Source of the DNA: an uncultured Methanosarcinales archaeon
Lineage (GTDB): Archaea; Nanobdellota; Nanobdellia; Woesearchaeales; DATDXC01
Length of the DNA: 62,688 bases
NCBI GenBank assembly: GCA_964510025.1
Contig: CAZDZV010000002.1
Location: forward strand, 124,001 to 186,688
Reading direction: 5' to 3'
The number at the start of each line of letters is the position of its first letter. The first letter of the stretch is position 1. A model generated the notes under the pieces. The model saw nothing but the letters and a program-made list of their open reading frames with translations, did no database searches and was not told where the DNA came from. Below, piece after piece: positions 12,001 to 43,423 of the stretch. A program made the position numbers and the translations under genes.

Positions 12001-15000
12001 AGGCCGTATCTGGTGTTCTCGTATATTGTGTTGTTGGTAAGGTTGTTGCCGTCGCTCAGGTACAGGCGGATGCCATAATAGTTGAGCGTTGAAGTGATAT
12101 TTTGCAGTGTTGAGTTTGTCGTATTGTAGAAGTTCACTCCGCAGAGGGAGCGGCTCACATTGGCGTCCTGGTAGCTCACATTCAGGCAGTGCGAGCAGTA
12201 TATAACTCCGGCGTCAGGTATGCTGCCGAAATCATGGTTGAGAACGCTGGTGTTGAAATATATCTTGTAGCCGTCAACAAGGTTTGTGGTGGGGATGGTA
12301 TTGTTGAAATCAGCAGCCGAGCCGGCAACATACAAGTTATATGTGTTGAAGCTCATGCTGTTGTTCTCAAAGAAGTTTCCGCTGGAAGAGCCTATGTAGA
12401 GCCCGTATTCCTGGGAGTTGAGGGTGTTATTGAAGATGTAGGAGCTGGTTGCAGACTCAAGCTTTATGCCGTAGCCGCCCGAGCTGGACATGGTGATGTT
12501 GCAGTTCCTTATTGTCGTATTTGAGGCATTTGAGATGATGCCTGCAGCTGCCAGGTCTGGATTGGAGATGTAGTAGTTCATGCAGTCATAGGTCACGTTT
12601 TCTGCTGTAATCCGTATGCAGTCGCCGCTGTCCGGGACTATGTGGCCTGTCTGGTTAAAGACAATATTTGGCTCGCTGAGGACAGTGCAGTTAGAGGCTG
12701 CGCCTGTATAGTTCAGCGTGAAGACATGCAGCAGGTTGTTCTGGTAGTAGGTTATGTTGTAGCTTTGGTTAATCTGAGTGTAGCCGGGCTTAGATGCATT
12801 TATCTCATAGAAGTAGAAAGAAGTATCTGATGAGTTTGTATATTCGGTAAGGGTTCCTATGTTGGTGTAGCCGTCTTCACCTGTTGTCATGGATTCCGCA
12901 AGCTTGGAGCTGTTGTAGGCTTTGATATCTGCAAATCCCACAGGCGTTCCTGTGCTGTCATTGACATATGCCCTGTAGTGCCATTTTCTGACCAGGCTTG
13001 AGTCGCTGCCTATGCTTTCATTGTCATAGGTAACGTTCAGGAATGTGTTGTTCAGCGCGTAGGTCTCAAGATAGATGCTGTAGCTGTTGGTGTTCTCTAT
13101 CAGGATATCCTGGAAAAGGTTGTTGTCAGCTCTTGTAGTTGAATATTGGCCATTAATCCAGATGCCATAGGAGCTGCTGCCATTTATATGGATATCACGG
13201 AAGATGCTGTCCTGGATCTCATTCTCTATATAGATGCATGCATATTCTCCAGCTGAAGAGCAGTTCCAGATGCGGATGTCTGAGAAAATACTGTCAACTG
13301 GCGTACTTGATTCAATGAACATGGAATATCGGGCATTTGAGCCTGCTGTTATGTTGCTGATCTCATTCCCATCAGAATAGCCAGACCATAGCCCGTCGGT
13401 ATTGTTGAACAAGGAGATATTGTCAAGGGTATTGCCATCACAATATGACATATATATGCCCGTGTTACTGTAGTGGGCTGTGATATTTGTAAGATTGTTG
13501 CCGTCTGCATATTGCATATAGAGCCCGTAGGTATTGTTAGAGGTGTAGATCTCGCTGAAATTGCTGTAGGAAGACCAATCAATATATAAGCCATAGGTGC
13601 TGGATTTCACTGAGATATCCTTATAGCTGTTCATGTTGGAATAGTCATTTATTTTCAGGCCCATGTAAGAATTAGAGCTGCTTATGTTTGTAAATTTAGA
13701 ATTGTCTGTGTCTGTGATGATCAGGCCGTTATTCTGGAATCCTGAGTCTATGGTTATGTTGGTAAGATTTGAGCTATCTGCATTGCATAGGATAAGCAAT
13801 GAATATTTTTCATTGGATAGATTGACAGAGCTGTTGTGGTAGGCAAATCCGTTGGTGCCTGTCACTGTTATGTTCTCGAAAATCTGGCTGCAGTCAGCTG
13901 CTGAACCATCATCATTGGAAATATCCATCTGCTCATTTTCAATGCAGGTCAGGTTGTAGAACTCATTGTAATATGCACTTACATAGTCTATACCATAGTT
14001 TGAATTGCGGCTTGCTGTTGAGTTCTTGATTATGGTGCGATAGACAGATGAGGTAAGATAGAATCCCCTTGTATTGCCATCTGAGGTCACATTCTGAAAG
14101 ATATTATCGTTTGAGCCAGAGACATAGATCCCGGTTCCGGTGTTGTTTATGGCAGATATACCCCTTATGGTATTGCTGTTGGACTCATCGTACAGCCTAA
14201 CCCCGTTATTGTTATATGTGAAACTGGATGACGCAACTGTATTCTGGGTGCATTCATCATATATATAGGTGCCATAAACATTTCCTCCGGCATTTATGTC
14301 TGTAAAAACATTATAATCACATCTAAATCTGAGCTCAATGCCGTACTCTTCATTGTCATTGGCGTGTACCTGGTTGAAGTGGTTGCTGTCACTATAATAC
14401 AGCTCTATGCCGTTTTCCATGTTGTAGTTCGTGGTTATGTTTGTGAAGTTGTTGGTTCCTGCAATATAGAGGTATATGCCGCTCTTGCTGTTGTTGCTTG
14501 CTGTAATATTTGTAAAATTATTATAATGTCCACTTATGTACAAGCCGTAATCTGTGCTGTTGATAACTGCTATATTCCTGAAATCATTATAGTATCCGTA
14601 CGAAGACATGTAGATTCCTGCCTGCGTATTGTTTATACAGGTTATATTATCAAAATCATTCAAACTCACGGGTGAAGCTAAATATATTCCAAGATTGCCA
14701 TTGTTTATTATAATACCTGTTATATTGTTGTAATAGCTGTATGTCATGTATATGCCTGCATAAGTCGTATTCTCTATGGTCATGGAAGATATTGTTGAGT
14801 AGTTGCCATCCAGATAGACACCTGCCCAGCTTGTATTAACCCTTATATTGGATATTGTGTAGTTTGAGACATCCTGAAGCCTGATGGAATTGCCCAAGTG
14901 GGTCAGATTGCAGTCTTTTATTGTTGATGAGTTTGTGTATTCTGAGAAGACCGCATATTGGCCGTCATTATAGGACAGCCCGTCAATGGTATGGTTCATG

Positions 15001-18000
15001 CAGTCCAATGTTACGTTCCAGGCTGTTATGTTCATGCATACAGATCCTGTAAAGTCGATGATGTTGGATGACAGATTATAGGTGGTATGGTCCTGGTTAA
15101 GGGTCCAGCACCTGTCCATCTTTGCGATGCCAATAGTTGAGTTCCCAGGTGCATGGGAAGATGTTCCGTGGGTAGTCTCTACCCTGCAGTTCCACTCATA
15201 TATCCCGGAAGATGGAAGGCTTTGGCTGAAATTGGCTGCAACATGGCTGCCTGTAAGGTCCGAGGTGTTCTGGATTATTACGCTGCCAGAGCTGTTCCAG
15301 ACAAACAAGGTAAGGTTGGTTATGTAATAGTCTGGGAAAGAGTTTATCGTAGCGTTGCAGGAGAAGTTATAGTCAAGCTCCACATCATGTGTGAAGTAAT
15401 AGTCAACAGGGCTTATCAGGGTGATATTGTAGTCTGTCGTGTTTATTATTGTGATATCTATCGTGGTTGTCTGGTCATTGATCGACATGTCAGAGGTAGC
15501 ATTAACATAGCCGAAGAATGTGCTTGTGCCCCATGAAGCAGAGGCATTTACCCAGAATGTGACATGCTGGCTCTCTCCTGGATTCATAGATATTGTATAA
15601 GGGTTGGATGACTTGTTTGTCCAGAAAGGCGTAGAGGGGGTCGTGTTTACAAGGCCGTATTTCTGCTCCCCTATAGCCTGGTATGTAAGGATATAGTCAT
15701 TCTGAACATAGTCGTTTGAGCCGTCAACTTCTGTGTATAGGCCCCCCTCATAGGATACGCCCTTTGGCGCTTGCTGTTCTCCATCCCATTGATCGCTTGA
15801 CTCATCATATGTAAAGATAATATCTCCATTCCTGTATAGTATCGCTTCTACCTCATAGATATCGCTGCTTGCATCATCATATACCATGTCCCAGTGGAAT
15901 ACGACATAATCGCTGTCTGTGCAGTAGTAAAATGTCGTTGCCTCATAGGAATTTTCCTGTGGATAGGAATCAGCTGAGTAAGGTGTTATTATTACATCTG
16001 AACTATCCGACATCTCTGATCCGTAATTGCTGCAATCCTCGTCATTGTCAAAGTTCAGCAAGCCGTTGTCGCAGACATCGATATCATCAAACTCCTCTCC
16101 GTAGAATTCAAAGCCAGATTCCCAGCCTGCATCGCCTGTAAATGAGAAATCCATGAAATAGTCATCTGAGATGAAGAACTCATTGTCAGAGCAGCCATAC
16201 CAGTTATTGCCCAGATCATCCAGCTCAAACGAATAGTATGCAGCGGGATCCAGGCTGACGTTTATGCCTGTACAGGCCCCCTGAATGCAGTCGACGGTGA
16301 ATGTTATGTTGAACCATCCGTTATACAGCACATCTGTATCAGCTGTCGGCGTTATCCAGTCGATGCTCAGCTGGATAGGATCTGTTGTGTATGTATATTG
16401 CCTTTGTGACTGGTTCAGGTTTCCGGCTGTATCTACTGAATAGGCTGTGAAGACATTATCCCCAGCCGGCAGAGATGTGAAGTTATGCTCATACCTGTAT
16501 GCTGAGGCATTGTAAAGAGCTTTGACTTCAGAAGCATTCAACGTCCTGTTGAAAACAACTATCTCATCTATAGAGCCGTTAAGGTCCCATGTTGTGCCGT
16601 TATAGGGTGCCCTTCCTATCCTGAACTCTTCTCGGGTTGGATTGGGGCAGTAGGGCCAGTCGCCAACATCCTTGAGATCACCGTTGATATAAAGGCTGGA
16701 GTTTGTGGAGTTCCACGCTACAGCTATGTGGTTCCAGCTGTTTTCAAGGCTGTTGACATAATATCCTCCCTTGCCTATACCTGCATTGTTCCATGCATAG
16801 TAGACTACATCTGTGCTTCGCCTATACAAGGTTGCATAGCAGTAGTTTGAACCTGTCTGCTCCTGGGCTAAAAGTATCTGGTAATCATCTCCAGCATCCT
16901 CCACATATGCCCAGAATGAATAAGAGGCATTGGACTCATTTGCGAACAATGCAACTGCCCCGTCTATCGAATCATCATCTCCGTCAAACTTCCATGCCTT
17001 TCCAAACCTGCCGTCTGCCTGGCCGTTGTCAAGGTCAGGGCCATCTCCTCTTGTTGTGTTGCTTGACCATGAGGCGTTTCTCTGGTAGGACGAGCTGTCG
17101 ACAGGGTCTCCTGTAGAGTTGAGAGAATCCATCGTCATCCATAGCAGGACATCGTTGCCATGCTCAACAAATGCATAGTGATGATGGACGTCAGATGTGG
17201 AGATGTTAACCTTTGCATGATCGACAGCTCCTGAATTGTTGGAATCACTGAATGCCACATACGGCGGCGTAAGGTCTATCTTGATTATCCTCTCTTCTGT
17301 CTCGTTCTTGTGGCCGGCCCTATCAACAGCAGCAGCCTTGTAGCTGAGGTTGCCCTCCCTCAAGCCAGTGACATTTGCATAATAGCCAGCTGTTGAGTTG
17401 TAGAGCATTGAGATTTCAGAAGCAGATAAGCTGCGGTTGAAGATAATTGCTTCGTCGATGGAGCCGTTGAAGGGATTTACACCTTCACTGCCTATATACC
17501 AGTCATTTGACCCGATTGTCAAAGAGCCTGATGGATTTGCGGATGCCTTTTCAACCGCGTTATGATAGATTTTTATGTTGCTTCCATTAGAAGTACATAC
17601 AACAAAATTCCACTTATTATACTCAACCACATCTGTATTGGTAGTCGCTCTATCATTGCTGTAATCATTCAAGATGCACTCTAGTTCTTTGTAGTCTCCA
17701 TCATCAATTCTAAACACTATCTCATATCCGCCCAAATTATAGATAAACTGATTGGTGGTCTCTTCAATTGGATATATCCATGCTGCCATAGTGATACTTG
17801 GTACACCATTAAAATCCATATTCGGTTCAGACACCAATAAATAATCCCCATCACCATCAAACTCAAACCCTTTCCCGAACCTTCCTGCTGTTACCTGATG
17901 GGCATTGCCTACTACAGAGCCGTTGTTGCTATATCCTGATTCGTCCAGCACACCGCCAGATGCATTCAGGCTGTCAAATCGCCACCAGCCGACAAGCGAG

Positions 18001-21000
18001 CTATCGATGTCAACAAACGCATATGTGTCTGTGCCTGCGGCTATTGAAGCGTTTACGAGATAGGTTGAGTTGCCCAAGACAAAATCTGTGGCTTTTGTCG
18101 GCTCTGAGAAGTTGATGTTTATGCCGACCGTATCCACTGTAAAGGTAAGAGTTGAATAGTTCTTGTTGCCATCTGCATCAACAGAATAGGCAGTGTATGA
18201 ATAGGAGTCATCAGCCAATGTCAGGTTTCTCTCCAGATGGTATTGTGACGAGTTGTATAGGGCTTGTATCTCAGAATTTGATAGGGTCCTGTTGAATATT
18301 ATGATATCATCAAGGGTCCCATTGAAGTCATTGTTGGCATTTTCACCGTACCTTCCTATGACCAGACCGCTTGTTCCGCTGATCATCGTACCTCCTTTTT
18401 TAGAGGATATATCTCCAGACTGCCCTTCAACGCTGTTGATATATAATATTGCATTTCCGCTGCGATTTACATTGACAAAAACGTGTGTCCACTCTCCTGA
18501 TATATCTCCAACATCATTCTCCACCTCAAGCCTATCTCCGGTATCATTATTGATATGGAATTCTATCGGATCGCCTGCTTCATCAGCCCTGTAGATAAGG
18601 CCAAATCCTTCTCCATCTGAATTGTACCAATTGCCTGTCGCTACAATGGCCAGAATACCCTCTTCATCGGTAGGTTTTATCCATGCTGAGACAGAAAAAT
18701 CAGTGGCATTGTCTAGGGTTGCAACGATAGCATTACCTGCATCAACATAGTCCCCATCACCGTCAAACTCAAATGCCTTTCCGAAATACCCTGAATCTGT
18801 CTGTGCTGCATTGCCTTCAGCAGAGCCGTTGTTCTCCCTGTGGGACTCATCCACTACATCACCTGAGGTATTCAACACGTCAAATCTCCACCAGCCGACA
18901 AGCGAATCGTTGAAGAATGAATAGGTATTATGTATATCAGTAACTGTTGCGTTGAGCTGGACAAAGCTGTCATTTACAGCGCCGTTATCTGATGGAGATG
19001 GATGGACAAACCTTATCTCTGCCACTATCCTGTCCTGAGCCTCTACTGTGACCAGGTTCTTGGCGCCTGCAGACTGAGATATCATCGGGGAATAAAAGCC
19101 GTAGTTATCGCTGAACAGCATATATTCTGGCATCACATTTGCAGTAAGAGTGGATATGCTGAATTCGTTTAGGGAATGGTTATCAGCTGAATCCACGGCG
19201 CTAAGCTGCTCGTAATCAGTGTAATCCCACAGGGCTTTTCCCTGTATATACAGCTGCCTGATCTCGTCTGATGACAGGCTTCTGTTGAATGCCAAAACCT
19301 CGTCTATGGTGCCGTTGAAGAAGTTGTTCGCTCCGTTGTAAGAGCCGATATATATGTCCTCCCTCTTATTTCCGACGTAGCATGCTTCTGAATCCTTAAA
19401 TTCCCCGTTGTAGTAGGCTAAAGAGTGATTGCTGGAGTTAAGGACGATACAGTAATGGCCAAGTTCCTGCCAGTACCCTGAGCCCAGGCTAACTCCATTC
19501 AGGCAGTAGGAATCAGATGTAGTGTCATTTCCGATACCGTATCTTACAACTGCATCTGTATCAAACATGATATGCGTATAGGTTGAGCCAGAGCCATAGC
19601 TTCCAACAACAACCATATTGCCGTTGTCTGGATTCTCATCTGACCTTGCCCAGGCGCAGATCGTAAGTTCGGTGTCTACAAGATTGTCATCAAAGGACGT
19701 GACCCCAACATAGTCGCTGTCGCCTTCAAAGTAGAATGCCTGGCCAAACACGCCGGGAGCAGTGGCTATCGCGCCCTCCAGCGAGCCGTCATAGCCTCCG
19801 CAGCTGTCTGCTGCATCCCCATCCCCTCTCCAGCAGCTTATAAGACTAGAATATCCTGTAAAGTCAGAGCTGTTATAGCCCAGGCTTTGGTCCCAGTAGC
19901 CAAGCCTCAGTGAAATGTCCGTATCCAGGCTTCTCTGGTAATCCAGCGTGGTTATATTGAAGGTATCATAGCCAGAGCTTATGTTGAACTGCTTTATCGT
20001 CTGCGTTGCTTGTTTCTTGAACCTGGCAGAGGTGTTCTTAAAGATGCCCCGGACCTGGGCATGGCTAAGCGAAATGTTGAAGATCATCACTTCATCTATA
20101 GAGCCGTTGAATGACCTGCCATTTTGGCCAGACCTGAAGCCGATAGCTGAGATTTCAGGTGCTCCGCTTCCGTAGGTCTCATTCATGGCGATGCCATCTA
20201 CCTCGCCATCTACATAGAGCGTCCTGTTGGTTCCGTTCATCGTGACAGCGACATGATACCAGACACCATATTCAAGGGTTGTTGAGCCTTCTGTAGAGCC
20301 GCCGCTCGGAGGGTATTGGTCAAACATCAGATTCTGTGTACCAATAATGAAATAATTCTTTGTTGCTGTGGTCACATACTCACCATAGATAGAATGTAGG
20401 TCTGTAGTCTTTTTATAGTGCTTCACCCATGCCATGATGGTGAAATTGGTGTCTTGTATGATGCCCCCATCAGAGAGGTTGACATAATCCTCCTGGCCAT
20501 TTAGCTGAACGCACCTTCCGTATCTGCAATCGCTTTGATTTATCACTGTCTTGTTCCTGGTGTTGGCATCATTATTTCCTGACCAGTCATGCACAGTCAC
20601 GTTTTCTTCATTTTCAACAGAAGTGTCAAAGTTCCAGTAGCCGATAAGGTATCTGCCAAGACCCCAGCTGCTCCATCTTGCATCCCCATTCAGCGTCCCG
20701 TCATTGCTGAACCCAGAGCTGTCTGTAGCATTTATCCCGGCTCCCTCGTCAAGCTTCCACCATCCCACTAAACCTTCTGACACCAAAGAACTGTTGGCAG
20801 TCCTGCCTGAATTATATAGCTCTGTAATATTTGCCTGGTTCAGGGATATGTTGTAGATCCTTACTTCGTCTATTGAGCCGTTGTAATTAAATACCCCGTT
20901 AAGCGCTCCAATGTTGACTGTAAAACCATCTGATAAATTGCTTATGGCCCTAGTCAGCTGGACAGTGGATCCTATATCTCCATCCCAGTAGACAGTTGTA

Positions 21001-23723
21001 TGGTTAGATGCATTGAATATAATAACAAGGTTATGCCACTCCTGAAGAGGAAAATCATCTTTCAAAACATGATATCCATCATCCTCATTGTTAATATCAT
21101 TGTAGACCCAGATATCATCTAGTAAGACCGTCCACCAAATTCGGTCGGTTCCAGAATTATAGAAGCTCAATAGAACATTCTGCTCTGCAACAGTGTCACC
21201 TGAGGATTCTACATTTATCCACATAGAAGCTGTAAATTCTTCCATATTGTCAAAATCACTCTTTGTGCTCAATTCAACATAATCCCCATCTCCATCAAAC
21301 TCCAGATAGACATCATCAGACTCATCTATTGCAAGAGCTGTGAAGTTGCCCACTGCGGCTATGTTTTTGTCTGTTGCGTTGCCGCTGAAATAGCTCTCGT
21401 TTTCTGAGATCACTACCTCATAGGTCTGGGCGCTCAGGTGGGGGACAATCCACTCGATGTAATTGATATATGTGTCTGAATCTGTGTCATATGAGTCAAA
21501 GTTAATCTCAACAGTCGTGGAATTTGTGTCATTCAAAGAGCCGTTGACAAGACCTGCCATCACAAGGTCTGAAACATTCGCATGCCAGTAAAGCCTTATG
21601 GCATGTTCCTTTACCCTGCCGTCGATGTTTGTATAAGCGAGTATGTTCTCATAGTGGACATCAGACACGACCTTTACCTGCTTCCTGTCAGAAGAGAGAT
21701 TTTCCTCCACTGAATAGGGGCCCTCGGTATAATATTCCACCTCGACTTCCTCGACCTCTTCTTCGATTATTATCTCTGTGGTGTTTGACTCAGACTCATT
21801 CATATCAGCTGCGAACCTCCCTGTAATAGAGGAAAGGCCTGAGCCAGAGGAAGTCTGGACAGGAGCCAGCTTTCCTGGCTCAATGTCTATGCCGAACAGC
21901 CATTCCACAAGCGAAGCAAGATAGCCTTTTCTTATGTCCCTGACCAGATACCCGGTCAGCTGGTTTCTCTCATTTTTTATGGCAATGATCTGCTGGTTAA
22001 GCTCGAGCACCTGCTCCTTCTCCAGGGGTGCCTCTGTCTTCCTCTGCTCCAGCTCAGATATTGTCTTCTCTATGGCATCTACCTTTTTCTCTGTAACGTA
22101 TTCATCAACTGTCTTTTCCTCCCCCTTATCGATGACTTTTATCTTCTCTTTGCTTATCTCCTGCTCCACGCCGAACCTCAGCTTTTTCACAGTGAAGTTA
22201 AGGGCTTCTGGGGTAAGGTTAATGCTTAGGTTGGACATGGTCGAGTTCAGGTTCACTTTCTTTACCCACTTAACTGGCCGGCCTATCACTGCGATGCCCT
22301 GCTTCAAGGACTCGGATTTGTTGACAACTGTTTTTTTCGCCACCTCCACCTGCATGGTGTTTGAAACAGAGAAGGTCTCTGTGTCATTTGCTATGAAGAA
22401 GATATGCTGGGTGCCTGTCCAGCCAAGGTCTGGTATTATGGTGGCAATATCCCCGTCTACCAGGACAGTGACGTTGTCTGAGCCATATGCTGTAAAGTAT
22501 AAAGTATCATTTTCAGGATCAGAGACATAGCTGCTCAGGTTGATATCTGTAAGGTTGCCGGGATCTATGATCTGCTTCGGAAGAGTCCCCCATACAGGCG
22601 CCCTGTTGGGCATCTCTTCCAGCGTTGTATATGTAACAGAATCCAAGCTGAGAGATGCATTGTCTATCTCTACGATAAGCCAGTAAAAGCTCCTGTTGAA
22701 TCCGGAAATAGCGCATGTCTCTACACAGATGTTGCTGAAGCTGATAACATCCGGAACAAATGTTGCAGACAAGTTCAAGGAAGCAGAATAGTTGATGTCT
22801 GTGTATGGATAGTCAAGGCTGAGGTTGTAGTCTACATAGATGACCTGGGCCTCTACGATGTTGTTGTATGTTGCTCCGTATGCCCCGTAATTAAGGTAGA
22901 AAGGCTCATCCCAGGAGCTTTGCGCAGGCTGGAGCCCGATGAAGTTGCAGCATTGCTGGTTTCCATAGCAGGATGTAGTTGATGTAGCATTATCCTGGCT
23001 TATCACCGACCATTTTGTGCAGAGCTTCTGCTCATTAAGCGAGGTTTCAGTGCCGGCGACTGACAGGTCTATTATGCCATCAGTTGCCTCAACACCGTTA
23101 TCATCTGGATCATAGGATGTGCCTGGATTATAGTCCAGGTCTATGCTGATTTCGCTGTCCCCTTCATAGAGCGGCTCGACAACCATCGCTGTAAGGTGGA
23201 GTATGGACGATATGCTGGGATCCTGCTTCAGCTCTGAGCTGTCGAATATAAGCAGCTGCTCGTCATCGTTCTCTATGTACACTTTTGCTGATCCATACAA
23301 GGATACGCTGCCTGATAGCTTCACTGAGTTAAGCTCAGCTGGGTTGGAGACAGACCAGACATAGTCATAGCTGTCATTGGCTGCCAGGTTAATATTGTCT
23401 GTATAGCTGAACTCCTTTGTCACAGTCACATAACCGATAAAGGCAGGCCTCAGTGTCAATGAAAAGACAACAAACATTATAAGCAGTATAGGCACAAGCC
23501 TCAAGGTGAGCTTCAGGTGCTCCTTATACTGCTCATTTGCCTGCTCCAGCTCTTTCTTATATTTGGAGTAAAGGTCAAACCATTCCTCTCTTGTCCTGCC
23601 TGATATCTTTTCGTTCAGGAGCTCAGCCAGCTCTGCCCTTGTAAGGACTCCATGCCTGTGCAGCTCCAGAATCTTCTTCAGCTGCTCCTCGCTTCTCTTT
23701 CCAAACTCCCTTATCTCATCCAT
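1..23723 (-). CDS. Giant membrane-anchored multidomain surface protein/adhesin (>=7,907 aa, 3'-truncated by the window edge)
   Basis: ATG at 23723 reads MDEIREFGKRSEEQLKKILELHRHGVLTRAEL..., then a TM segment (LVPILLIMFVVFSLTL). The same frame reads as open protein at the window edge (..SLILVNASKHGVYISESTE). The track lists no stop-terminated ORF in this frame, which implies no internal stop. Contains LamG motifs (LVGWWRFD; FDGDGDY; NGSIDE..IFNRSL), PbH1-type repeats (GIYL..S.NN...NIT) and dense N-x-S/T sequons. Confidence 0.95.
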   Translation of the reverse strand, partial: MDEIREFGKRSEEQLKKILELHRHGVLTRAELAELLNEKISGRTREEWFDLYSKYKKELEQANEQYKEHLKLTLRLVPILLIMFVVFSLTLRPAFIGYVTVTKEFSYTDNINLAANDSYDYVWSVSNPAELNSVKLSGSVSLYGSAKVYIENDDEQLLIFDSSELKQDPSISSILHLTAMVVEPLYEGDSEISIDLDYNPGTSYDPDDNGVEATDGIIDLSVAGTETSLNEQKLCTKWSVISQDNATSTTSCYGNQQCCNFIGLQPAQSSWDEPFYLNYGAYGATYNNIVEAQVIYVDYNLSLDYPYTDINYSASLNLSATFVPDVISFSNICVETCAISGFNRSFYWLIVEIDNASLSLDSVTYTTLEEMPNRAPVWGTLPKQIIDPGNLTDINLSSYVSDPENDTLYFTAYGSDNVTVLVDGDIATIIPDLGWTGTQHIFFIANDTETFSVSNTMQVEVAKKTVVNKSESLKQGIAVIGRPVKWVKKVNLNSTMSNLSINLTPEALNFTVKKLRFGVEQEISKEKIKVIDKGEEKTVDEYVTEKKVDAIEKTISELEQRKTEAPLEKEQVLELNQQIIAIKNERNQLTGYLVRDIRKGYLASLVEWLFGIDIEPGKLAPVQTSSGSGLSSITGRFAADMNESESNTTEIIIEEEVEEVEVEYYTEGPYSVEENLSSDRKQVKVVSDVHYENILAYTNIDGRVKEHAIRLYWHANVSDLVMAGLVNGSLNDTNSTTVEINFDSYDTDSDTYINYIEWIVPHLSAQTYEVVISENESYFSGNATDKNIAAVGNFTALAIDESDDVYLEFDGDGDYVELSTKSDFDNMEEFTASMWINVESSGDTVAEQNVLLSFYNSGTDRIWWTVLLDDIWVYNDINNEDDGYHVLKDDFPLQEWHNLVIIFNASNHTTVYWDGDIGSTVQLTRAISNLSDGFTVNIGALNGVFNYNGSIDEVRIYNISLNQANITELYNSGRTANSSLVSEGLVGWWKLDEGAGINATDSSGFSNDGTLNGDARWSSWGLGRYLIGYWNFDTSVENEENVTVHDWSGNNDANTRNKTVINQSDCRYGRCVQLNGQEDYVNLSDGGIIQDTNFTIMAWVKHYKKTTDLHSIYGEYVTTATKNYFIIGTQNLMFDQYPPSGGSTEGSTTLEYGVWYHVAVTMNGTNRTLYVDGEVDGIAMNETYGSGAPEISAIGFRSGQNGRSFNGSIDEVMIFNISLSHAQVRGIFKNTSARFKKQATQTIKQFNISSGYDTFNITTLDYQRSLDTDISLRLGYWDQSLGYNSSDFTGYSSLISCWRGDGDAADSCGGYDGSLEGAIATAPGVFGQAFYFEGDSDYVGVTSFDDNLVDTELTICAWARSDENPDNGNMVVVGSYGSGSTYTHIMFDTDAVVRYGIGNDTTSDSYCLNGVSLGSGYWQELGHYCIVLNSSNHSLAYYNGEFKDSEACYVGNKREDIYIGSYNGANNFFNGTIDEVLAFNRSLSSDEIRQLYIQGKALWDYTDYEQLSAVDSADNHSLNEFSISTLTANVMPEYMLFSDNYGFYSPMISQSAGAKNLVTVEAQDRIVAEIRFVHPSPSDNGAVNDSFVQLNATVTDIHNTYSFFNDSLVGWWRFDVLNTSGDVVDESHRENNGSAEGNAAQTDSGYFGKAFEFDGDGDYVDAGNAIVATLDNATDFSVSAWIKPTDEEGILAIVATGNWYNSDGEGFGLIYRADEAGDPIEFHINNDTGDRLEVENDVGDISGEWTHVFVNVNRSGNAILYINSVEGQSGDISSKKGGTMISGTSGLVIGRYGENANNDFNGTLDDIIIFNRTLSNSEIQALYNSSQYHLERNLTLADDSYSYTAYSVDADGNKNYSTLTFTVDTVGININFSEPTKATDFVLGNSTYLVNASIAAGTDTYAFVDIDSSLVGWWRFDSLNASGGVLDESGYSNNGSVVGNAHQVTAGRFGKGFEFDGDGDYLLVSEPNMDFNGVPSITMAAWIYPIEETTNQFIYNLGGYEIVFRIDDGDYKELECILNDYSNDRATTNTDVVEYNKWNFVVCTSNGSNIKIYHNAVEKASANPSGSLTIGSNDWYIGSEGVNPFNGSIDEAIIFNRSLSASEISMLYNSTAGYYANVTGLREGNLSYKAAAVDRAGHKNETEERIIKIDLTPPYVAFSDSNNSGAVDHAKVNISTSDVHHHYAFVEHGNDVLLWMTMDSLNSTGDPVDSSSYQRNASWSSNTTRGDGPDLDNGQADGRFGKAWKFDGDDDSIDGAVALFANESNASYSFWAYVEDAGDDYQILLAQEQTGSNYCYATLYRRSTDVVYYAWNNAGIGKGGYYVNSLENSWNHIAVAWNSTNSSLYINGDLKDVGDWPYCPNPTREEFRIGRAPYNGTTWDLNGSIDEIVVFNRTLNASEVKALYNASAYRYEHNFTSLPAGDNVFTAYSVDTAGNLNQSQRQYTYTTDPIQLSIDWITPTADTDVLYNGWFNITFTVDCIQGACTGINVSLDPAAYYSFELDDLGNNWYGCSDNEFFISDDYFMDFSFTGDAGWESGFEFYGEEFDDIDVCDNGLLNFDNDEDCSNYGSEMSDSSDVIITPYSADSYPQENSYEATTFYYCTDSDYVVFHWDMVYDDASSDIYEVEAILYRNGDIIFTYDESSDQWDGEQQAPKGVSYEGGLYTEVDGSNDYVQNDYILTYQAIGEQKYGLVNTTPSTPFWTNKSSNPYTISMNPGESQHVTFWVNASASWGTSTFFGYVNATSDMSINDQTTTIDITIINTTDYNITLISPVDYYFTHDVELDYNFSCNATINSFPDYYITNLTLFVWNSSGSVIIQNTSDLTGSHVAANFSQSLPSSGIYEWNCRVETTHGTSSHAPGNSTIGIAKMDRCWTLNQDHTTYNLSSNIIDFTGSVCMNITAWNVTLDCMNHTIDGLSYNDGQYAVFSEYTNSSTIKDCNLTHLGNSIRLQDVSNYTISNIRVNTSWAGVYLDGNYSTISSMTIENTTYAGIYMTYSYYNNITGIIINNGNLGIYLASPVSLNDFDNITCINNTQAGIYMSSYGYYNDFRNIAVINSTDYGLYISGHYNNFTNITASNNSKSGIYLYIAGTNNFTNITTNYNMENGIELYYSDSNHFNQVHANDNEEYGIELRFRCDYNVFTDINAGGNVYGTYIYDECTQNTVASSSFTYNNNGVRLYDESNSNTIRGISAINNTGTGIYVSGSNDNIFQNVTSDGNTRGFYLTSSVYRTIIKNSTASRNSNYGIDYVSAYYNEFYNLTCIENEQMDISNDDGSAADCSQIFENITVTGTNGFAYHNSSVNLSNEKYSLLILCNADSSNLTNITIDSGFQNNGLIITDTDNSKFTNISSSNSYMGLKINDYSNMNSYKDISVKSSTYGLYIDWSSYSNFSEIYTSNNTYGLYMQYADGNNLTNITAHYSNTGIYMSYCDGNTLDNISLFNNTDGLWSGYSDGNEISNITAGSNARYSMFIESSTPVDSIFSDIRIWNCSSAGEYACIYIENEIQDSIFRDIHINGSSSYGIWINGQYSTTRADNNLFQDILIENTNSYSIYLETYALNNTFLNVTYDNESIGSDSSLVRKWHYRAYVNDSTGTPVGFADIKAYNSSKLAESMTTGEDGYTNIGTLTEYTNSSDTSFYFYEINASKPGYTQINQSYNITYYQNNLLHVFTLNYTGAASNCTVLSEPNIVFNQTGHIVPDSGDCIRITAENVTYDCMNYYISNPDLAAAGIISNASNTTIRNCNITMSSSGGYGIKLESATSSYIFNNTLNSQEYGLYIGSSSGNFFENNSMSFNTYNLYVAGSAADFNNTIPTTNLVDGYKIYFNTSVLNHDFGSIPDAGVIYCSHCLNVSYQDANVSRSLCGVNFYNTTNSTLQNITSTLNYYGIRLYLSDGNNLTNNTIYENTRYGLDINSSHGNFVENSNMHSCADSCIHLSSASNNSFKAGILNVSAKNLIYLDAAINNSFYGMQLYDPVSDAVNISRTAKNNTFDSLLIFAPTKAVSGIVSHAANTTVRYCNITMSSSSPGYGIELVMANDTQVAGCNLDSQYRGLMLDRTSKALVEDTIASSNQDHGVYLYYSDNNIFRNVTASYNDDYNLYMDYSSYNNVSFSSFDFSATDNGLYLRYSDNNQLWNISTKENWNYGIQLYYSDNTTITNITSSSNRVNGLYIQGKGNNLSNIYVSNSMTGLYLYYADDSSIANIIAYNSSNSGIQLYHSDRNRFENVTTYENYRGIYFYDYCYNNTFKDVTSYSSSYEEIYLYDNYIIGNEFENINLWNCSNVSASFSCIHLARDCENTVFRDVYINKSSGYGIKVLGIVSWTADHNLFQNILMENVDEYDLYVLEYADNLTMLNATYDDEYTGSATSVYRKWHYRAYINDSSGNPLDSINVTAYNRSDDYHFNLTTNSSGYTQLTPITEYLNQSGTTTYPSNYTIFAQHPSYEAANRSYNASGNNLEHVITMGSSLDAAAPSISLIFPLNNSWHINGNMSFTYNATDDTALDTCILYGNFNGTWLANLTNTTPASGVADTFYLNLTNGSYTWNVWCNDTAGNFGFNETNITFHIDSVRPSISLHNPGAGETLADEDVMFNWTATDNLDSSLLCNLTINGTVNQSYISSANGSYTSSTVAGFGNGLYLWNVTCWDNATNINTSLTRNFTVSAVRICDQGDYQTTCNVTTAHNIPDGTNINLNNLIIKSGGSVYNDTANCSGSNHGCGFAIAATGNITVQNGGQLKAGNISIDAENIHVNAGGEITGDGLGWMCQYGPGQWWWGAHHGGPYSGQTYNKMYGNATAPRDFGTGATCQYTADARGGGVVFVNASGNLEINGSVSADGRHSGGYSSGSGGSVWLISQEISGNGTISAKAPTYSKYGGAGGGRVRNTFITDRFLGIISVAGYASEHAGTYSFSDGPNVNLTVKADMALAGGNYTLHTLAVTNGATLEVQPLFNGSNQIEGNGAGVVINAVHVYIEEGASISGKGLGFDGCNATIGQGPNAHHGGFNGYGTKEPDLLYGSEKQPLSLGGAKGVCGTTQSGRGGGAIFLNLSGNCSINGTIDVSGKPNGGYNYAGSGGSVYIRADVISGNGSIIANGGDGTYYGGGGGRIALHSNTLSFPGLIVNNGGVESDDATPDAAYGTAGTIYMNATIIINSTGNVTATGYNGSTARINFTSQLLSLTGTYNASSNVDQQGIITLDFTNCTGSAITGTFDPAYTKFRCSYPVINSNYTYPETPLFFYNVTITANVTDEDSDIIWVNFTLANSSESLLDQANGTSSGDWWNSTATNVSSDGLWTWTINVSDATGLKASSTGSFIAHNTRPIECQELSQPNTVYILQNDITGISGTCFNITADNITLDMNGFNITGDEGGYGVYVDGHENLTVKDGQIYDFGYGAYISGSDYNALENITANSNGYGVMIVSSYYNNFTSVVANLNTQYGMYFDSAGNNNLTAITADNNSMGILLDEDSDSNVFIGIVANNNSQHGIDLISGSDGNVFRDVISNYNTLDGVALASSVNNNFTNITADFNRYGINVSSADSNNFSQISTQGNDYDWYVYDSDVLGYDMNNASVFYWESSFGKVVFLNRSIYASGTDLSEVISITENNVFVNSSKEQGFNTTANITITGISLSQPKAIVDYDDDSKFEECSYCSNLYYSDQVFIFNVTHFTTYKAVENSSLYSCVELEGLNTVYTLQQDITGISGTCFTIAADNITLDMNSYNITGDNSGSGIHADGYNETKVINGKIYSFQYGISLNNNRKNNLSSIISESSYFGIYLSESHDNLLEYVTANNNTEDVSSPGIYLSSSHNNTLTNIIAYSNADGIELSSSDNNSLINISSSFNQGPQDGLGIHLLDSDSNVIQGITTNSNTGENGLGIWIDGSDNNNISSIIAEDNWQGISIGQTVGNYNNIFSDGNISECGAASDVLVDYDARNTTFINMTYGSETVGCSDSPPSPCSTLTRKWYYRAYVNDTAGNIVINANVTAYNVTDDYVLNLTTDSTGYTPRAELTEYVSDGSTRSYYNNYTVYAVNSTYAASTRSYNLTIEENNLEHVFTLSLSPDLTVCGALDQPNTYYTLQSDITGIEGTCFTITADNVTLDMNGFNITGDDDDDGYGVYSDGYNESTIKNGEIYDFDRGIYLKNNQENDIINITSKSNVRGIYLVSSSNNNLIDITSNLNEYGIRLGSSSNNNQLTNITANSNGHYGIEFDSSSNNNLTGITANSNYDYGILLYSSSNNNQLTDITANENSQGIYLDSSSNNTFTNITANSNSWDGIYLDSSSNNNTLTNLNIWNCSTGGSYSCIEVDTSNNNVFTSGTINTSATHLIWMDGSSTGNNLSSLVLSNATKHGVYSENTAGNNRFFNLTVSDTALAAFNISNGTATKIINNTFYNVPLNYHIVDGTVGEYSLQNDSLHIDDTDYGSIRFINSSLYASGSNLSDIVSIASTVAFVNTSADKGLNTSANISFATLMSGPSVVVDWDDDGSYEACPASVCEEISYDTGKYRFNVTHFTSYSIKSVQYISNCSVLDEENTLYMLDTVILSGSPDYIVCMNITADDVELDCQDYYMRIDDVDTGIYSEDTRNITIRNCNITMLSQDDRTIAVHLNNSDDALIEGNILDYNYNNFIRIDSGTNIRIRNNVMRHTYSDYGLEFAEEYNLNVTGVEIYNNIIYNASYTGIYVNHGNNFTISYNNISRNGRNGVVYGDAEGIAFTDNTTDNMIFNNNFSRNNEKAIYLAECRNINISSSRFYDDYSEDQKIQLVYGYNVTIEHNTFSHLGNNNDYVIDFETFAENVTIAGNSFSSLLSGAITSDDSRSNFVVRDNLFDNLSASYSVMRIYTDNSIIFNNTIDSYEGSERIIEIYGDNSNVSNNTIVRNNQTNSNPQVLIEIGGLYANVDGNTITQSEGAIAIYIEGNHSAIRNNLIYSNQFGDEFIAIQLYDEGRMLYNTTITGNYFDSNTMTGYDMLDLDVDYANISDNIITYTGGSGEECYVMNLDGSYLTIRNNDITNNGCEGYIYGIYISGNDNVIIANDFSYLTSSDDYIYGMDIEGNNNTLIDNEMDNLGSSGSDDFDNVYLIEVNGNNNIISNPGEHERSGSIESAYSSNGDLYGIYIGGNYNLINNTDVYECNGAVNTYLYWIDGSNNTMLDMAGSMDSKSRSSAAAEGIFVMGSNNTIRRASVSYIYAEGTGADDVKGFSLDIDNSIVDDCDAGYISSTNDNSYGFFIYGDNNSIYDADSYGVDGNQYAGGIYVSGYNNIINRSDVLDVFCLTDAAYGIELSGNNNTLVGSTFDTISGDTAYGVSVSGNLNVLANDNDVSVVGATLASYGYYISGSNNTLFDEGGVNGAGSITSSNDDAYSIYISGNFNNATGQLLGSPSASNDAYAVYISGDSNYAEKLEIQGMDNGYDYGIYISSGTGNRIRDTNTNTYDDDPDYAVYIDGKGNNTFIDSWFYAASNDIYLTSTTNNTFLNCSFSTSDDYVAADSYYIRKWYYRAYVNDTGGNIVINANVTAYNITDIYQFNLTTNATGYTQQAEITDYINLGGTKYYYNNHTIYAENETYMTAAVSYNASGNNLEHVFTLSLSPDLTVCGALDQPNTVYTLQNNIETTDTCFTIAADNITLDMNGFRITGNTGTGDYGVYSDSHTNITVKDGDIYQFESGIYLINCNSSLIDNITFEDSTNGVGSYRAAVKLSSTNSSILEDITINDWGGDNDYGGAMAVYLKDCHYNNLTRIHIKDIDDAFTEWYQIYLDSSDNNILRDSNITVQDGLGSHTSVYVDGTDNWIINNTISYATSAAVGLHGSYNHVINNTMFSSNYLLEVQSSHNQLQNNDLYSCGASFGCIFVHDADNNSFIGGSMEDSSSSIIYLESSDNNAFESITLHNASEHLVYVAASSGNNFTSLILVNASKHGVYISESTE
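967..1043. repeat. 77-bp exact direct repeat, copy 1 (module junction)
   Basis: Identical to 5536-5612; the 4569-bp offset is in frame. Confidence 0.95.
4900..5285. repeat. Six ~66-72-bp tandem coding repeats (GIxLxSSSNN.. beta-helix coils) in an AT-rich segment
   Basis: The ga(g/a)cttgag part of the gttgtttga(g/a)cttgag core begins at 4912, 4981, 5050, 5119, 5191 and 5257. Confidence 0.85.
5536..5612. repeat. 77-bp exact direct repeat, copy 2 (module junction)
   Basis: Identical to 967-1043. Confidence 0.95.
16510..21310 (-). other. Array of six LamG/concanavalin-A-like domains within the giant protein
   Basis: Six NG(S/T)(I/L)D(E/D)xxx(F/Y)NxxL motifs at about 20880, 20105, 19315, 18320, 17465 and 16580, each preceded by an FDGDGDY-like motif. 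Boundaries are approximate. Confidence 0.85.
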
Positions 23724-23944
23724 TTTTTAGCTTTTTTTCTGGCTCTTGCATAGACTGTCCAGATATTCCTTTCATCCCTGTTCAGCAGTTCTGCGATCTT
23801 CCTGAACGATAGGCCTTTCTCTTCCTTGAGGTAGAATACAATGGCCTCAAAAACAGTGTGTTTTGTCTTGAAAATAGATTTAGGAAAATAGATAAGGTCC
23901 TTAAAATAGCTCAAGCTGTCTTCTTCCCCACTGCTTTCAACCAT
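23711..23944 (-). CDS. Small helix-turn-helix DNA-binding protein (sigma-70 region 4/LuxR-like HTH)
   Basis: EAIVFYLKEEKGLSFRKIAELLNRDERNIWTVYARARKK fits an HTH pattern. Overlaps the giant gene start by 13 nt. Confidence 0.8.
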   Translation of the reverse strand: MVESSGEEDSLSYFKDLIYFPKSIFKTKHTVFEAIVFYLKEEKGLSFRKIAELLNRDERNIWTVYARARKKAKKWMR

Positions 23945-23950
23945 CTAGAA

Positions 23951-24135
23951 TACACACATTATATTAATCCTTTAAATAACTTTCGCTTTTGATACATATA
24001 TTGTGTGTTTTTTCTTAATACATACATTGTATGTATTTTAGATTTATAAATGGCCTGTTTTTATTTATGAGTTACACATTGTATGTATAATTTTTAATCT
24101 AAAGAAGAATTCTCTATTTACATACAATGTGTGTT
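23951..24135. promoter_or_regulatory. Array of five 17-bp palindromic sites TACAYACA-W-TGTRTGTW (candidate operators)
   Basis: Centres at 23959, 24001, 24027, 24079 and 24127. The copy at 24017-24037 is a perfect 10-bp inverted repeat, AATACATACA-T-TGTATGTATT. Confidence 0.75.
23970..23985 (-). promoter_or_regulatory. Archaeal BRE-TATA promoter for the HTH/giant-gene operon
   Basis: Minus-strand CGAAAGTTATTTAAAG about 25 bp upstream of the HTH ATG. The same architecture is seen at other promoters in the window. Confidence 0.7.
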
Positions 24136-24265
24136 AGATATGGACTGTATAGAATCCTCTAGCAGGAATCAAATCTAGACCTAACGAACATGCAATTTTA
24201 AACCATCCCCTCAAGAAATCTTATAACTGGAAGATATATAAAATTTAGTATTAACGAGATGGTAG

Positions 24266-24859
24266 TTATCTGCTTGCGTCTGCCTGCCGCTCCATCTCAA
24301 GCTTCTTAGAAATGGCATTTGAGCTCTGGCTCAGGTTATAAGCAGCTACAATCTCATCTGCCAAAAATTCCTCAATGGGCTTTTTTGACTTAAAGGACTT
24401 ATGGTATGCTCCCTGGGTCATATACCTCAAAGACAGGTCGATCCTTCTCTGGGGACTGCATTCCACTGCTTTAGGGTAGCGGGCTCCCCCGTATTCTATC
24501 GTGATTATCTCTTCACGCTGCGCGGAATTCTCAAGGGCTTTCACAAAAACCTCTATGGGATTCTTTTTTGTCTTTTTTTCTATGATAGAAAGCATATTCT
24601 CGACTATCTGAGAGGCATTCTGGGCTTTTCCAGTTATATGGCCGCTGGACTTGAAGTGCTTGCCGCTCTTGTGGCCAGGCACCATTATCTTATTTATAAG
24701 CCTCTCTATAATGAATATCTTCGACTTGTGGAAGCGATTGCCTGCATATCTTGCCCCTGTTTTCGGGACTATCTTCGGATCCAAAGAGATATAGCCAACC
24801 AATCCTGGATCATCTACCTTTATCCCTTCTGTTGACCATCTGTTAAATGCCTTAATCAT
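24266..24859 (-). CDS. rps7: 30S ribosomal protein S7
   Basis: Archaeal uS7 motifs ([36 protein letters not shown]); follows rps12. Confidence 0.97.
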
Positions 24860-34139: not shown

Positions 34140-34634
34140 CTATAAAAATTTGACAATCTTGCAGGGGTCATCACTATATATAATATCTCTTCTTTGGCAG
34201 ATTTGAGCTATTTTTTGGAAAAGTTCTGTTAATGGGCCGGACTTGAGGACAGCTATCTTCTTTTTTTCGTGCAAGGCAAGAGTAAATTCATTTAAGGTGC
34301 CAACCTTTCCGTCAAAAAATATAACTGCATCTGCTGCATAAATTAGAGGGATGTTCCTTTCAGGGATGCCCAAACCGGTAAATTCATATTCTACATCCGG
34401 GTCAATGGAAAACCCGTATCTCCCTATATGCTCCTGCTCATCTTTTGCCGGAGAATATACAATAATCCTGCCCCCCTGGAGCAGAGCCCCCCTTAGGGCT
34501 GCATATGGGTAGCCGTGGCAGCCGCCTGTTAGCACGATATGTTGATCTTTAGCGATTTCCCTGCCTAGTTGCTTTGCCTTCTGAGAAATTTCCTGGACAG
34601 CTGCCCTTCCTGATCCTGATACTGCTATTTTCAT
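34140..34634 (-). CDS. LOG/SLOG-family Rossmann-fold protein (TIGR00725-like, putative nucleotide monophosphate nucleosidase)
   Basis: IAVSGS, VLTGG, RN and ADAVI...GKVGTLNE motifs. ATGA overlap with pyrF. Confidence 0.8.
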   Translation of the reverse strand: MKIAVSGSGRAAVQEISQKAKQLGREIAKDQHIVLTGGCHGYPYAALRGALLQGGRIIVYSPAKDEQEHIGRYGFSIDPDVEYEFTGLGIPERNIPLIYAADAVIFFDGKVGTLNEFTLALHEKKKIAVLKSGPLTELFQKIAQICQRRDIIYSDDPCKIVKFL

Positions 34635-35323
34635 CTCAAAGCCTGAACCAGCTCAGTAGCTTTTTCTTTGATTTTGTCTGCGTTGTAAATGGCTCTTCCG
34701 ACTATTGCATGCCAATTGCTGCCAGCTGCTTTGGCTCCTTCTGTAAGGGAGCCGCCCTGTGCTATAAGCCCGGGAGAATACAAGATTGGCCTAACGCCCT
34801 TTTTTTCCAGCAACGCCCTGTATTCTGCTATCTTTTTTGGCCTGTTTCCAGGAACAACATAGTCTGTTACGCCCTGATCAGCAGCTATGTTGTATATCCT
34901 TTCAGGTGCGTCTTTCCTGAGAAATCCTTCCTCATCCTCAAGATAGCCAGGGTGGGTCATCTCTCCGCCGACGATTATCCTGATGCCTGCTTTTTTGGCT
35001 GCTCTTATCCATTCAAGCTCTGTTACAGGTCCTGCCTGGGGGAAGATGATGACAGCATCTACGCCCTTGCATGCGTTCATGAACTTTTCTCCGGTTGCCG
35101 GGATATCTGTGCCTGCTTTTTGGTGGTCATATATTATTGGCAGCTCGGTGATGCTTCTTATGGTCTGGAGAACTTTTCTCAGTCCGAATGGGATGACCAG
35201 CTCAAATCCGATTTTGTATGCCCCTATGCCATTGATGTCGCATGTATTTTTTACTATCTCTTCTGCCCTTCCCAGGCTAGGGACATCAAGGGCCGGTATG
35301 ACTGACTTTTTCAGTTTTATCAT
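34631..35323 (-). CDS. pyrF: Orotidine-5'-phosphate decarboxylase
   Basis: IPALD, YKIG, DHQKAGTDIP, SPG..QGG and IVGRAIY motifs; operon context. Confidence 0.88.
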   Translation of the reverse strand: MIKLKKSVIPALDVPSLGRAEEIVKNTCDINGIGAYKIGFELVIPFGLRKVLQTIRSITELPIIYDHQKAGTDIPATGEKFMNACKGVDAVIIFPQAGPVTELEWIRAAKKAGIRIIVGGEMTHPGYLEDEEGFLRKDAPERIYNIAADQGVTDYVVPGNRPKKIAEYRALLEKKGVRPILYSPGLIAQGGSLTEGAKAAGSNWHAIVGRAIYNADKIKEKATELVQALR

Positions 35324-35324
35324 T

Positions 35325-37907: not shown

Positions 37908-37916
37908 TCTCTCAGT

Positions 37917-38798: not shown

Positions 38799-38799
38799 T

Positions 38800-43419
<4,620 letters not shown>

Positions 43420-43423
<4 letters not shown>

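Follow-up and report, generated by a model that had tools for sequence, protein, structure and literature searches.

Among the described archaeal repressors, the closest to the system reported here is EnfR of Thermococcus onnurineus, for which the literature gives a dimeric repressor that lacks an effector domain and binds a pseudo-palindrome over the TATA region (PMC10570040). A second arrangement is that of LrpA from Pyrococcus furiosus and MDR1 from Archaeoglobus fulgidus, whose operators border the TATA box on its downstream side and block RNA polymerase (PMC2995911). The Woesearchaeota are without cultured isolates (PMC8421398), their large surface proteins are candidates for host attachment (PMC8204110), and no description of a transcription factor-operator pair for them was found in the literature searched. 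Here we analyze a stretch of 62,688 nucleotides from an uncultured archaeon of the Woesearchaeales (the window), which spans C2:124001-186688 of the source genome G000 (1.70 Mb, 97.7% complete). Its central element is a 321-bp spacer of 27% GC that separates the gene for ribosomal protein S7 from a gene for a 77-aa helix-turn-helix (HTH) protein, and the latter overlaps the start of a giant surface-type gene by 13 nt. Judging from the sequence, the five palindromes in this spacer are probably operators of the 77-aa protein, which would bind them as dimers and probably repress the transcript that it is predicted to share with the giant gene. The features concerned, in window coordinates, are as follows.

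3..23723, minus strand (G000 C2:117658-147723): giant surface-type protein, 7,907 codons in the window and 10,021 aa in total.
23711..23944, minus strand: 77-aa sigma-region-4-type HTH protein of the Asn60 subtype, a predicted autorepressor (Pfam, structure model).
23765..23767, minus strand: codon for Asn60, which tracks operator base 4 and stands third in the predicted recognition helix.
23951..23967, no strand: predicted operator copy E, a weak site (8.6 bits) lying between TATA and ATG.
23971..23979, minus strand: proximal TATA-like box, its end 26 nt before the ATG (from sequence; aligned and largely kept in the comparison genome G002).
23980..23986, minus strand: purine run (from sequence) resembling a TFB recognition element (BRE).
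23993..24009, no strand: predicted operator copy D (18.8 bits), located upstream of the BRE-like run and ending 6 nt from it.
24019..24035, no strand: predicted operator copy C, a perfect palindrome (27.7 bits), with 10-bp arms that span 24017-24037.
24043..24050, minus strand: second TATA-like box, a candidate upstream promoter starting 15 nt before copy C and absent from the original prediction.
24071..24087, no strand: predicted operator copy B, with one good half (4.6 bits).
24119..24135, no strand: predicted operator copy A (22.5 bits).

Bit scores derive from a matrix of 70 sites at other loci, with this locus excluded, and have a maximum of 27.7. The original prediction had placed five copies of the palindrome TACAYACA-W-TGTRTGTW at centres 23959, 24001, 24027, 24079 and 24127, and all five are found there, with 3, 1, 0, 3 and 0 mismatches, respectively, and spacings of 42, 26, 52 and 48 bp. 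It had further noted perfect 10-bp arms at site 24027, a copy lying between the TATA-like box and the ATG at 23944 (site 23959) and another just upstream of the BRE (site 24001), and each of these holds, the last by position. When up to three mismatches are allowed, the pattern occurs in exactly five places in the window, every one of them inside the spacer, and its 10 strand-matches compare with a mean of 1.23 and a largest value of 4 in shuffles. The spacer alone holds five sites, as against at most two in 1,000 dinucleotide shuffles. In G002, which belongs to the same family as G000 and to a different genus, the gene order is identical, and both the 77-aa orthologue and the 13-nt overlap are present. 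Over 60 codons, the HTH cores of the two genomes show synonymous changes at 24 and non-synonymous changes at 10. Alignment of the two spacers shows that all five sites are kept, with 66 of 85 site positions identical versus 88 of 236 elsewhere; the degenerate upstream half of copy E is itself identical in G002.

A first question is whether these repeats are simply RNA or DNA secondary structure, or the debris of duplication, in an AT-rich spacer. The G000 spacer does fold well as RNA (z -5.49), and some arrays in relatives are plain tandem duplications of promoter units. However, the G002 spacer keeps the sites and folds no better than shuffles (z -1.67), which argues that the DNA site is the conserved thing; moreover, the sites are conserved whereas the DNA between them is not, no Rfam family matches, and the hybrid sites described below break the pairing in a fixed manner. 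This explanation is already largely refuted, and we regard it as having next to no chance of being correct. The Rfam search gave a single match, at E 0.86, which was rejected.

The HTH gene is, as had been proposed, a 77-aa open reading frame (ORF) with the stated overlap into the giant ORF, and its product matches Sigma70_r4_2 (PF08281) above the Pfam cut-off (E 9e-7, 28.9 bits, cut-off 25.7). A structure model with a predicted local distance difference test score (pLDDT) of 85.7 is all-helical, with helices at residues 31-41, 47-53 and 58-76 and no further domain, and lies closest to sigma region 4 and to EnfR, with middling and tied Z scores of 7-8. Comparison of 33 family members with Pfam gave Sigma70_r4_2 matches for 23 and matches to Lrp-type families for none. 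Domains diagnostic of neighboring families were likewise absent from the 77-aa protein. Only residues 32-76 align with sigma models, in their C-terminal part and far below the cut-off, so sigma region 2 was not found; the all-helical model does not contain the C-terminal RAM domain of Lrp/AsnC proteins; and the chain ends at EnfR residue 54, which leaves no room for residues 63-146, that is, for the acidic C-terminal alpha+beta domain of Tfx and EnfR. The model TIGR00721 gave no match to the 77-aa protein at E 0.1 and matched 2 of 33 relatives (best E 0.001).

Sigma70-related proteins assigned to fam00359 are reported to be prevalent in Woesearchaeota, with their control unexplained (PMC8204110). 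We rejected fam00359 as the same family on length (280 versus 77 aa) and on its primary-sigma KEGG label, in a comparison confined to these two features. The covered parts of PMC8204110 mention no operators and no surface-gene link, and the terms Sigma70_r4_2 and HTH_23 are absent from its supplementary file 1. Neither the main-text parts consulted of a preprint on Nanobdellota (10.64898/2026.05.13.725050) nor those of PMC5413776 describe the HTH family, and no description of it was found in the literature searched, which was mainly open literature.

The locus is not a one-off module but one copy of an order-wide family. Matches to the HTH occur in 30 of 41 relatives (E 0.001) and in 132 of 301 genomes of Woesearchaeales (E 1e-11), as single domains or tandem pairs in ORFs of ~45-240 aa. 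Named records with HTH relatives belong to Nanoarchaeia/Woesearchaeota, and the first six Atlas rows of relatives are archaeal clusters in which Nanobdellota or Woesearchaeota are commonest. G000 itself encodes four tandem paralogues (C3, C6, C10 and C14), each of which precedes a gene with a hydrophobic N-terminal segment. For the family as a whole we assembled 242 distinct HTH ORFs from the loci of the protein and motif searches, 94 regions selected among (not exhausting) the protein hits listed, and the top 80 out of 197 hits in metagenomes, and applied a site rule in which the outer bases are fixed and positions 4-5 are free. Under this rule 123 of the 242 ORFs have a site upstream. Among protein-first HTH ORFs shorter than 400 aa with 250 bp of upstream DNA, a site precedes 99 of 189, as against 9 of 1,429 ORFs in G000 (3 of 67 for the AT-rich ones). 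The HTH genes usually stand ahead of genes for membrane or secreted proteins: drawing on 110 site-bearing loci with enough downstream DNA, the next gene overlaps the HTH gene in 90 of 102 loci and carries a hydrophobic segment in 93 of 102, compared with 344 of 1,453 G000 ORFs. A scan for the exact motif gave hits in 33 of the 188 genomes examined from the order, compared with 2 of 63 from other orders of the class; one genome had a hit with the reversed control. In some arrays (L052, L053, L049 and L301) the entire unit of TATA box and site is repeated in tandem, with a period between 42 and 48 bp.

What ties a given protein to a given site? The sites are of two types that differ at base 4 of each 6-bp half, the A-type, to which this window belongs, and the T/C-type. 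Of 301 genomes searched motif-first, 9 had the A-type and 67 the T-type, the reversed-pattern controls giving 0; three unpublished genomes (G275, G210 and G135) contribute to the A-type figure, to the dispersed A-type sites of genus g136 described below and to a few rows of the pairing table. Inspection of the 48 motif-first loci found an HTH beside the A-type site in 7 of 14, always with Asn at residue 60, and beside the T-type site in 17 of 34, always with Thr. When proteins with sites were grouped by residue, those with Asn only had an A-majority in 26 of 29 cases (2 were pyrimidine, both one weak match in L219, and 1 was a tie), and those with Thr only had a pyrimidine-majority in 64 of 65 (1 tie). 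Residue 60 was the best predictor among 52 columns, with a leave-one-out accuracy of 0.97 (next best 0.86; 64 single-domain ORFs), and six Thr proteins that carry the Asn-type neighbor Glu58 still have T/C sites. In a metagenome set fetched after the idea arose, the pairing of residue and base stood at 16 of 18 versus 0 of 13; this set was drawn with an Asn-type alignment and contains near-copies of genomes already in the analysis. Each of the four G000 paralogues has Thr in at least one domain and Asn in none, and the repeat at their loci is a T-type half plus spacer.

The tandem proteins extend this pattern within single molecules. Those that combine an Asn and a Thr domain have asymmetric sites in 24 of 24 cases (20 loci), compared with 4 of 75 and 5 of 171 in the pure types; 27 of 47 mixed ORFs have no site under the rule, many through missing upstream DNA. 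Dereplication at 70% with the unpublished genomes removed left Asn with A in 12 of 12, Thr with pyrimidine in 34 of 34 and mixed with asymmetric in 15 of 15. Where Asn60 is accompanied by His63, base 4 is more often G (in 4 of 7 strict sites, versus 4 of 279), and both site types, with matching HTH residues, occur inside the single genomes G022, G149, G017 and G217.

Structural comparison with region 4 of sigmaE (end register, offset 109, no helix gap assumed) equates Asn60, Thr63 and Arg67 with sigmaE T169, S172 and R176. All three sigmaE residues contact the -35 element, and T169 is not among the main base readers named there (PMC1540707). By this analogy Asn60 may read base 4 directly. Because residue 60 tracks operator base 4, the HTH protein is tied to the DNA site, and that the HTH family and the palindromes belong together is in our judgment highly probable.

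Could the sites nevertheless be bound by another protein encoded in trans, such as NrdR, which appears to be encoded in G000, with the HTH gene a bystander? Orphan sites do exist far from any HTH gene, and a weak match (11.4 bits) lies upstream of a gene on C15 that we take to be NrdR-like. However, site type follows the residue of the neighboring HTH even in genomes that hold both types, mixed proteins go with mixed sites, and the palindromes here have odd symmetry, unlike the NrdR box, which is an even 16-bp palindrome. A bystander role for the HTH gene is therefore highly improbable.

A further question is how occupancy of these sites would affect transcription. Across the family, 56 of 123 loci have a TATA-like hexamer that begins 8-18 nt ahead of the gene-proximal site, versus 19.1 in shuffles (largest 34; 500 shuffles), and the distance from TATA start to site peaks at 12-14 nt. 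Proximal sites end no more than 26 nt from the start codon in 69 of 115 cases. Repression is the likely main mode. We propose that an HTH dimer would bind each 17-bp site with one HTH per 6-bp half-site, and that dimers on copies E and C, just downstream of the two TATA-like boxes, would leave TBP and TFB in place but block RNA polymerase; further, cooperative occupancy would come from copies A, B and D. The transcript from the proximal TATA-like box would be leaderless, and the position of the sites points to autoregulation. Because the 13-nt overlap would couple translation, the repressor should rise along with the giant protein, and the resulting negative feedback would cap output of the latter. 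The Asn subtype would insulate this circuit from the four G000 paralogues. A sensor domain would not fit into a 77-aa protein, so that release of repression would probably come about by dilution, by proteolysis or through a partner protein.

Several observations tell against this account. The site rule finds nothing upstream of 119 of the 242 HTH ORFs, 67 of 123 proximal sites have no TATA pattern at the enriched distance, and orphan sites in relatives often do not show the TATA geometry, some of them lying inside ORFs or at gene ends. In the window itself, the distances between the TATA-like boxes and the sites that follow them, 9 and 15 nt, fall on the margins of the family peak. Two copies, E (between TATA and ATG) and B, score low, with 8.6 and 4.6 of 27.7 bits. 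The pairing of residue and base has its own exceptions: the Thr-only locus L233 has an A-type site next to a T-type site. It is also exposed to shared descent, as judged from trees built from 51 columns with quick searches. A 94-row tree needs 7 changes of the Asn label, but starred branches carry just 2 independent pairs, and the approximately unbiased test does not reject one Asn clade (p-AU 0.7); a 184-domain tree needs 10 changes, of which 2 are forced. Because the tree shows no repeated origins of Asn, the pure-type counts are not independent events and partly reflect kinship. Kinship affects least the evidence from hybrid sites and from genomes in which both types occur with matching sites.

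An alternative is that the array acts as a dual, concentration-dependent switch of the kind described for Ss-LrpB (PMC2995911), in which low levels of protein would fill the strong distal copies, the dimer on copy D aiding TFB and TBP, and high levels would fill copy E and shut the promoter. The location of copy D relative to the BRE-like run corresponds to an archaeal activator position described in PMC2995911, the strong copies are distal and the proximal one is weak, with its weak half identical in G002, and the half assigned to the C-terminal domain lies upstream in 15 of 20 mixed tandem loci. Against this, the position enriched across the family is downstream of TATA and proximal sites are often perfect, the structure model of the 77-aa protein contains no separate activation domain, and conservation of the weak half of copy E may reflect promoter constraints. 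Nor is helical phasing significant after dereplication: 112 spacings from 61 dereplicated loci, many of them 41-48 bp, give a Rayleigh p of 0.05-0.07 at 10-10.5 bp. We consider a dual switch unlikely. The original prediction of a dedicated autoregulatory, possibly switch-like module is thus retained in that HTH and palindromes are linked and near-dedicated in G000; its switch-like character would be a less probable addition, the position conserved across the family being the repressor one, and the phasing points neither way.

The preferred reading, repression by HTH dimers, leaves room for the giant protein as a partner, and two further features bear on this.

23463..23519, minus strand: sole predicted membrane helix of the giant protein, aa 69-87 (hydropathy scan).
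23520..23723, minus strand: the 68 N-terminal aa ahead of that helix, with three predicted helices, presumably cytoplasmic and of no known family.

The in-window part of the giant protein matches LamG, beta-helix/NosD and Ig-like domains in Pfam, and the protein has 490 N-glycosylation sequons. The label of adhesin given to it earlier is a putative one, drawn from this content of LamG, beta-helix and Ig-like domains. As in sigma/anti-sigma pairs, a single-pass membrane protein with a putative inside N-terminal domain is co-encoded with the HTH. A fold search with this domain gave a best Z of 6.3, to unrelated helical proteins common among matches, and 14 members compared with Pfam gave no match better than E 0.02. 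Homologues of it head two more large G000 genes, at C2:77330 (minus strand) and C10:10713 (minus strand), of which the latter lies directly 3' of an HTH paralogue and the former (2,266 aa) has no HTH found beside it.

It is conceivable that the cytoplasmic N-terminal domain of the giant protein holds or releases the HTH in the manner of an anti-sigma factor, or that the HTH tethers DNA to surface proteins. The translational overlap in most loci, the start of the hydrophobic segment after residue 40 in 42 of 102 next genes and the recurrence of the domain as 16 distinct segments, including the giant's own, all favor such coupling. So do nine ORFs of 538-1,812 aa (L048, L222, L228, L247, L252, L253, L270, L277 and L288) that fuse sequon-rich surface-type regions to C-terminal HTH pairs by way of a short hydrophobic stretch and a basic cluster, with two or four HTH domains, all in Thr+Asn pairs; the promoter of L048 itself has hybrid sites, and 5 of the 9 resemble the C-terminal 260 aa of the giant protein (E ≤0.004). 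For EnfR, too, an antirepressor of unknown identity has been proposed (PMC10570040). However, 51 of 102 next genes have the hydrophobic segment within their first 40 residues, so an inside domain is not an obligatory partner. In addition, the hydropathy scan called no full membrane helix at the fusion junctions, and the contig on which a homologous inside domain heads the 2,266-aa gene had no second HTH found. Membrane coupling is accordingly a doubtful proposition for this locus.

The stretch after the membrane helix (window 21700-23500) contains short (I/L)TG(Y/F/M)(V/A) motifs, which are repeated in the giant protein and occur also in many surface genes downstream of these HTHs in relatives; they are possibly a processing or sorting signal. 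G000 has three more giant ORFs, at C8:17860-40254 (7,464 aa), C8:2358-18029 (5,223 aa) and C4:84435-99983 (5,182 aa), and neither an HTH of the same family nor a strong site was found upstream of them.

How far do the sites reach beyond this locus? Had the motif been common across the genome, a dedicated role would be hard to sustain; the scan of G000 found four sites of at least 18 bits in 1.7 Mb, three of them in this spacer. The fourth (C1:172798-172814, A-type, 24.0 bits) has a 785-aa gene ending 32 bp before it and, ~230 bp beyond it, a small ORF, presumably for a ribbon-helix-helix protein. This ORF overlaps a secreted-type gene of 1,920 aa, after which comes another of 2,786 aa. Going by this placement, these genes are a possible second target. 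Below 14 bits the real genome behaves like its reverse (10 versus 8 matches at 9 bits or more). A housekeeping regulon in G000 was rejected, as 10 housekeeping genes that adjoin a site in relatives had a site in 0 of 10 cases in G000.

In relatives, orphan T-type sites recur at matching housekeeping loci across families, and orphan sites also precede surface genes that have no HTH. We take the housekeeping loci concerned to encode TBP (L080, L306 and L307), gyrase A (L079 and L309), S2/DUF192 (L096 and L312) and RIO kinase/KH proteins (L297 and L311). The recurrence suggests, on sequence grounds, a wider regulon in some lineages. In genus g136 (L058-L060, L064-L066, L299 and L300) each genome has eight A-type sites, dispersed and close to housekeeping and tRNA-like sequences. 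Its genomes (G210 and G135, unpublished, and G266, which is not) encode several HTH proteins of the Asn type, among them a run of three consecutive genes (L103).

Upstream of the array, the minus strand encodes RNA polymerase subunits, an L7Ae/L30e protein, a NusA-like KH protein, S12 and S7.

24266..24859, minus strand: ribosomal protein S7, the last gene of the upstream RNA polymerase/ribosomal protein cluster, which adjoins in G002 too.

RNA folding placed a long stem-loop at window 24202-24263, immediately 3' of the S7 stop codon, with none such in the G002 fold; it is a candidate terminator of the cluster. Elsewhere in the window, 34631-44493 (minus strand) holds a pyrimidine biosynthesis cluster that looks complete, which is notable in a DPANN archaeon, with genes for carbamoyl-phosphate synthase, aspartate carbamoyltransferase and its regulator, dihydroorotate dehydrogenase, an amidohydrolase, a phosphoribosyltransferase and orotidine monophosphate (OMP) decarboxylase. 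A search of viral contigs gave one weak match (E 3e-4) among 11 candidate stretches. Among sequencing runs, no RNA run was listed as containing the sequence, a result without bearing on expression, and a sigma-70 promoter/terminator scan, whose model does not cover archaeal promoters, gave 0 sites.

The family offers a protein together with its site, a likely mechanism, and the prediction that a single point mutation, N60T, would swap specificity; tests of these need no culture, only a 77-aa protein and short oligonucleotides. The motif also allows regulons to be predicted from genome sequence, and repressor-operator pairs that are small and orthogonal could make useful parts. We also entertain, as a speculation of low probability, that an expanded family of bare sigma4-type regulators controls the large surface proteins of Woesearchaeales by a modular one-residue code (Asn for A, Thr for T/C, Asn with His63 for G), and that the repressor is released via the cytoplasmic domain of its own surface protein or is fused to that protein. 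If so, tandem fusions would build new operators, paralogues would stay insulated, and DPANN archaea would have a form of host-contact signaling akin to bacterial sigma/anti-sigma surface signaling, with TBP, gyrase and ribosomal genes also within its reach in some lineages.

The logic of an autorepressor over the core promoter is familiar; the family, the code and the targets are undescribed in the literature searched. Bacterial extracytoplasmic function (ECF) sigma factors share the HTH fold through their region 4, and sigma/anti-sigma operons likewise encode a single-pass membrane protein with an inside N-terminal domain, but the 77-aa protein has no region 2, its host has an archaeal RNA polymerase and its sites are palindromic rather than directional. 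Ss-LrpB resembles this locus in having several sites in its own control region, one just upstream of the BRE (PMC2995911), and differs in its Lrp fold and in wrapping DNA over regularly phased sites; the spacings here are 42, 26, 52 and 48 bp, and phasing across the family is borderline. LrpA and MDR1 are alike in the predicted position of the operator downstream of TATA, but they belong to other protein families, MDR1 being metal-dependent and Lrp proteins having a RAM domain, whereas the 77-aa HTH has no second domain. EnfR shares a sigma4-like HTH (TON_1525, PDB 8HNO, Tfx family; Z 7.6, root-mean-square deviation 1.4 Å, 51 aligned residues, 31% identity), and the predicted position of the sites at the core promoter fits its mode of action, dimer repression being a prediction here. 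EnfR, however, is a 146-aa protein with a C-terminal alpha+beta domain that acts at one 36-bp site on a metabolic cluster (PMC10570040), whereas the family described here has bare or tandem HTH domains, 17-bp sites in arrays, apparent autoregulation and surface genes as its targets.

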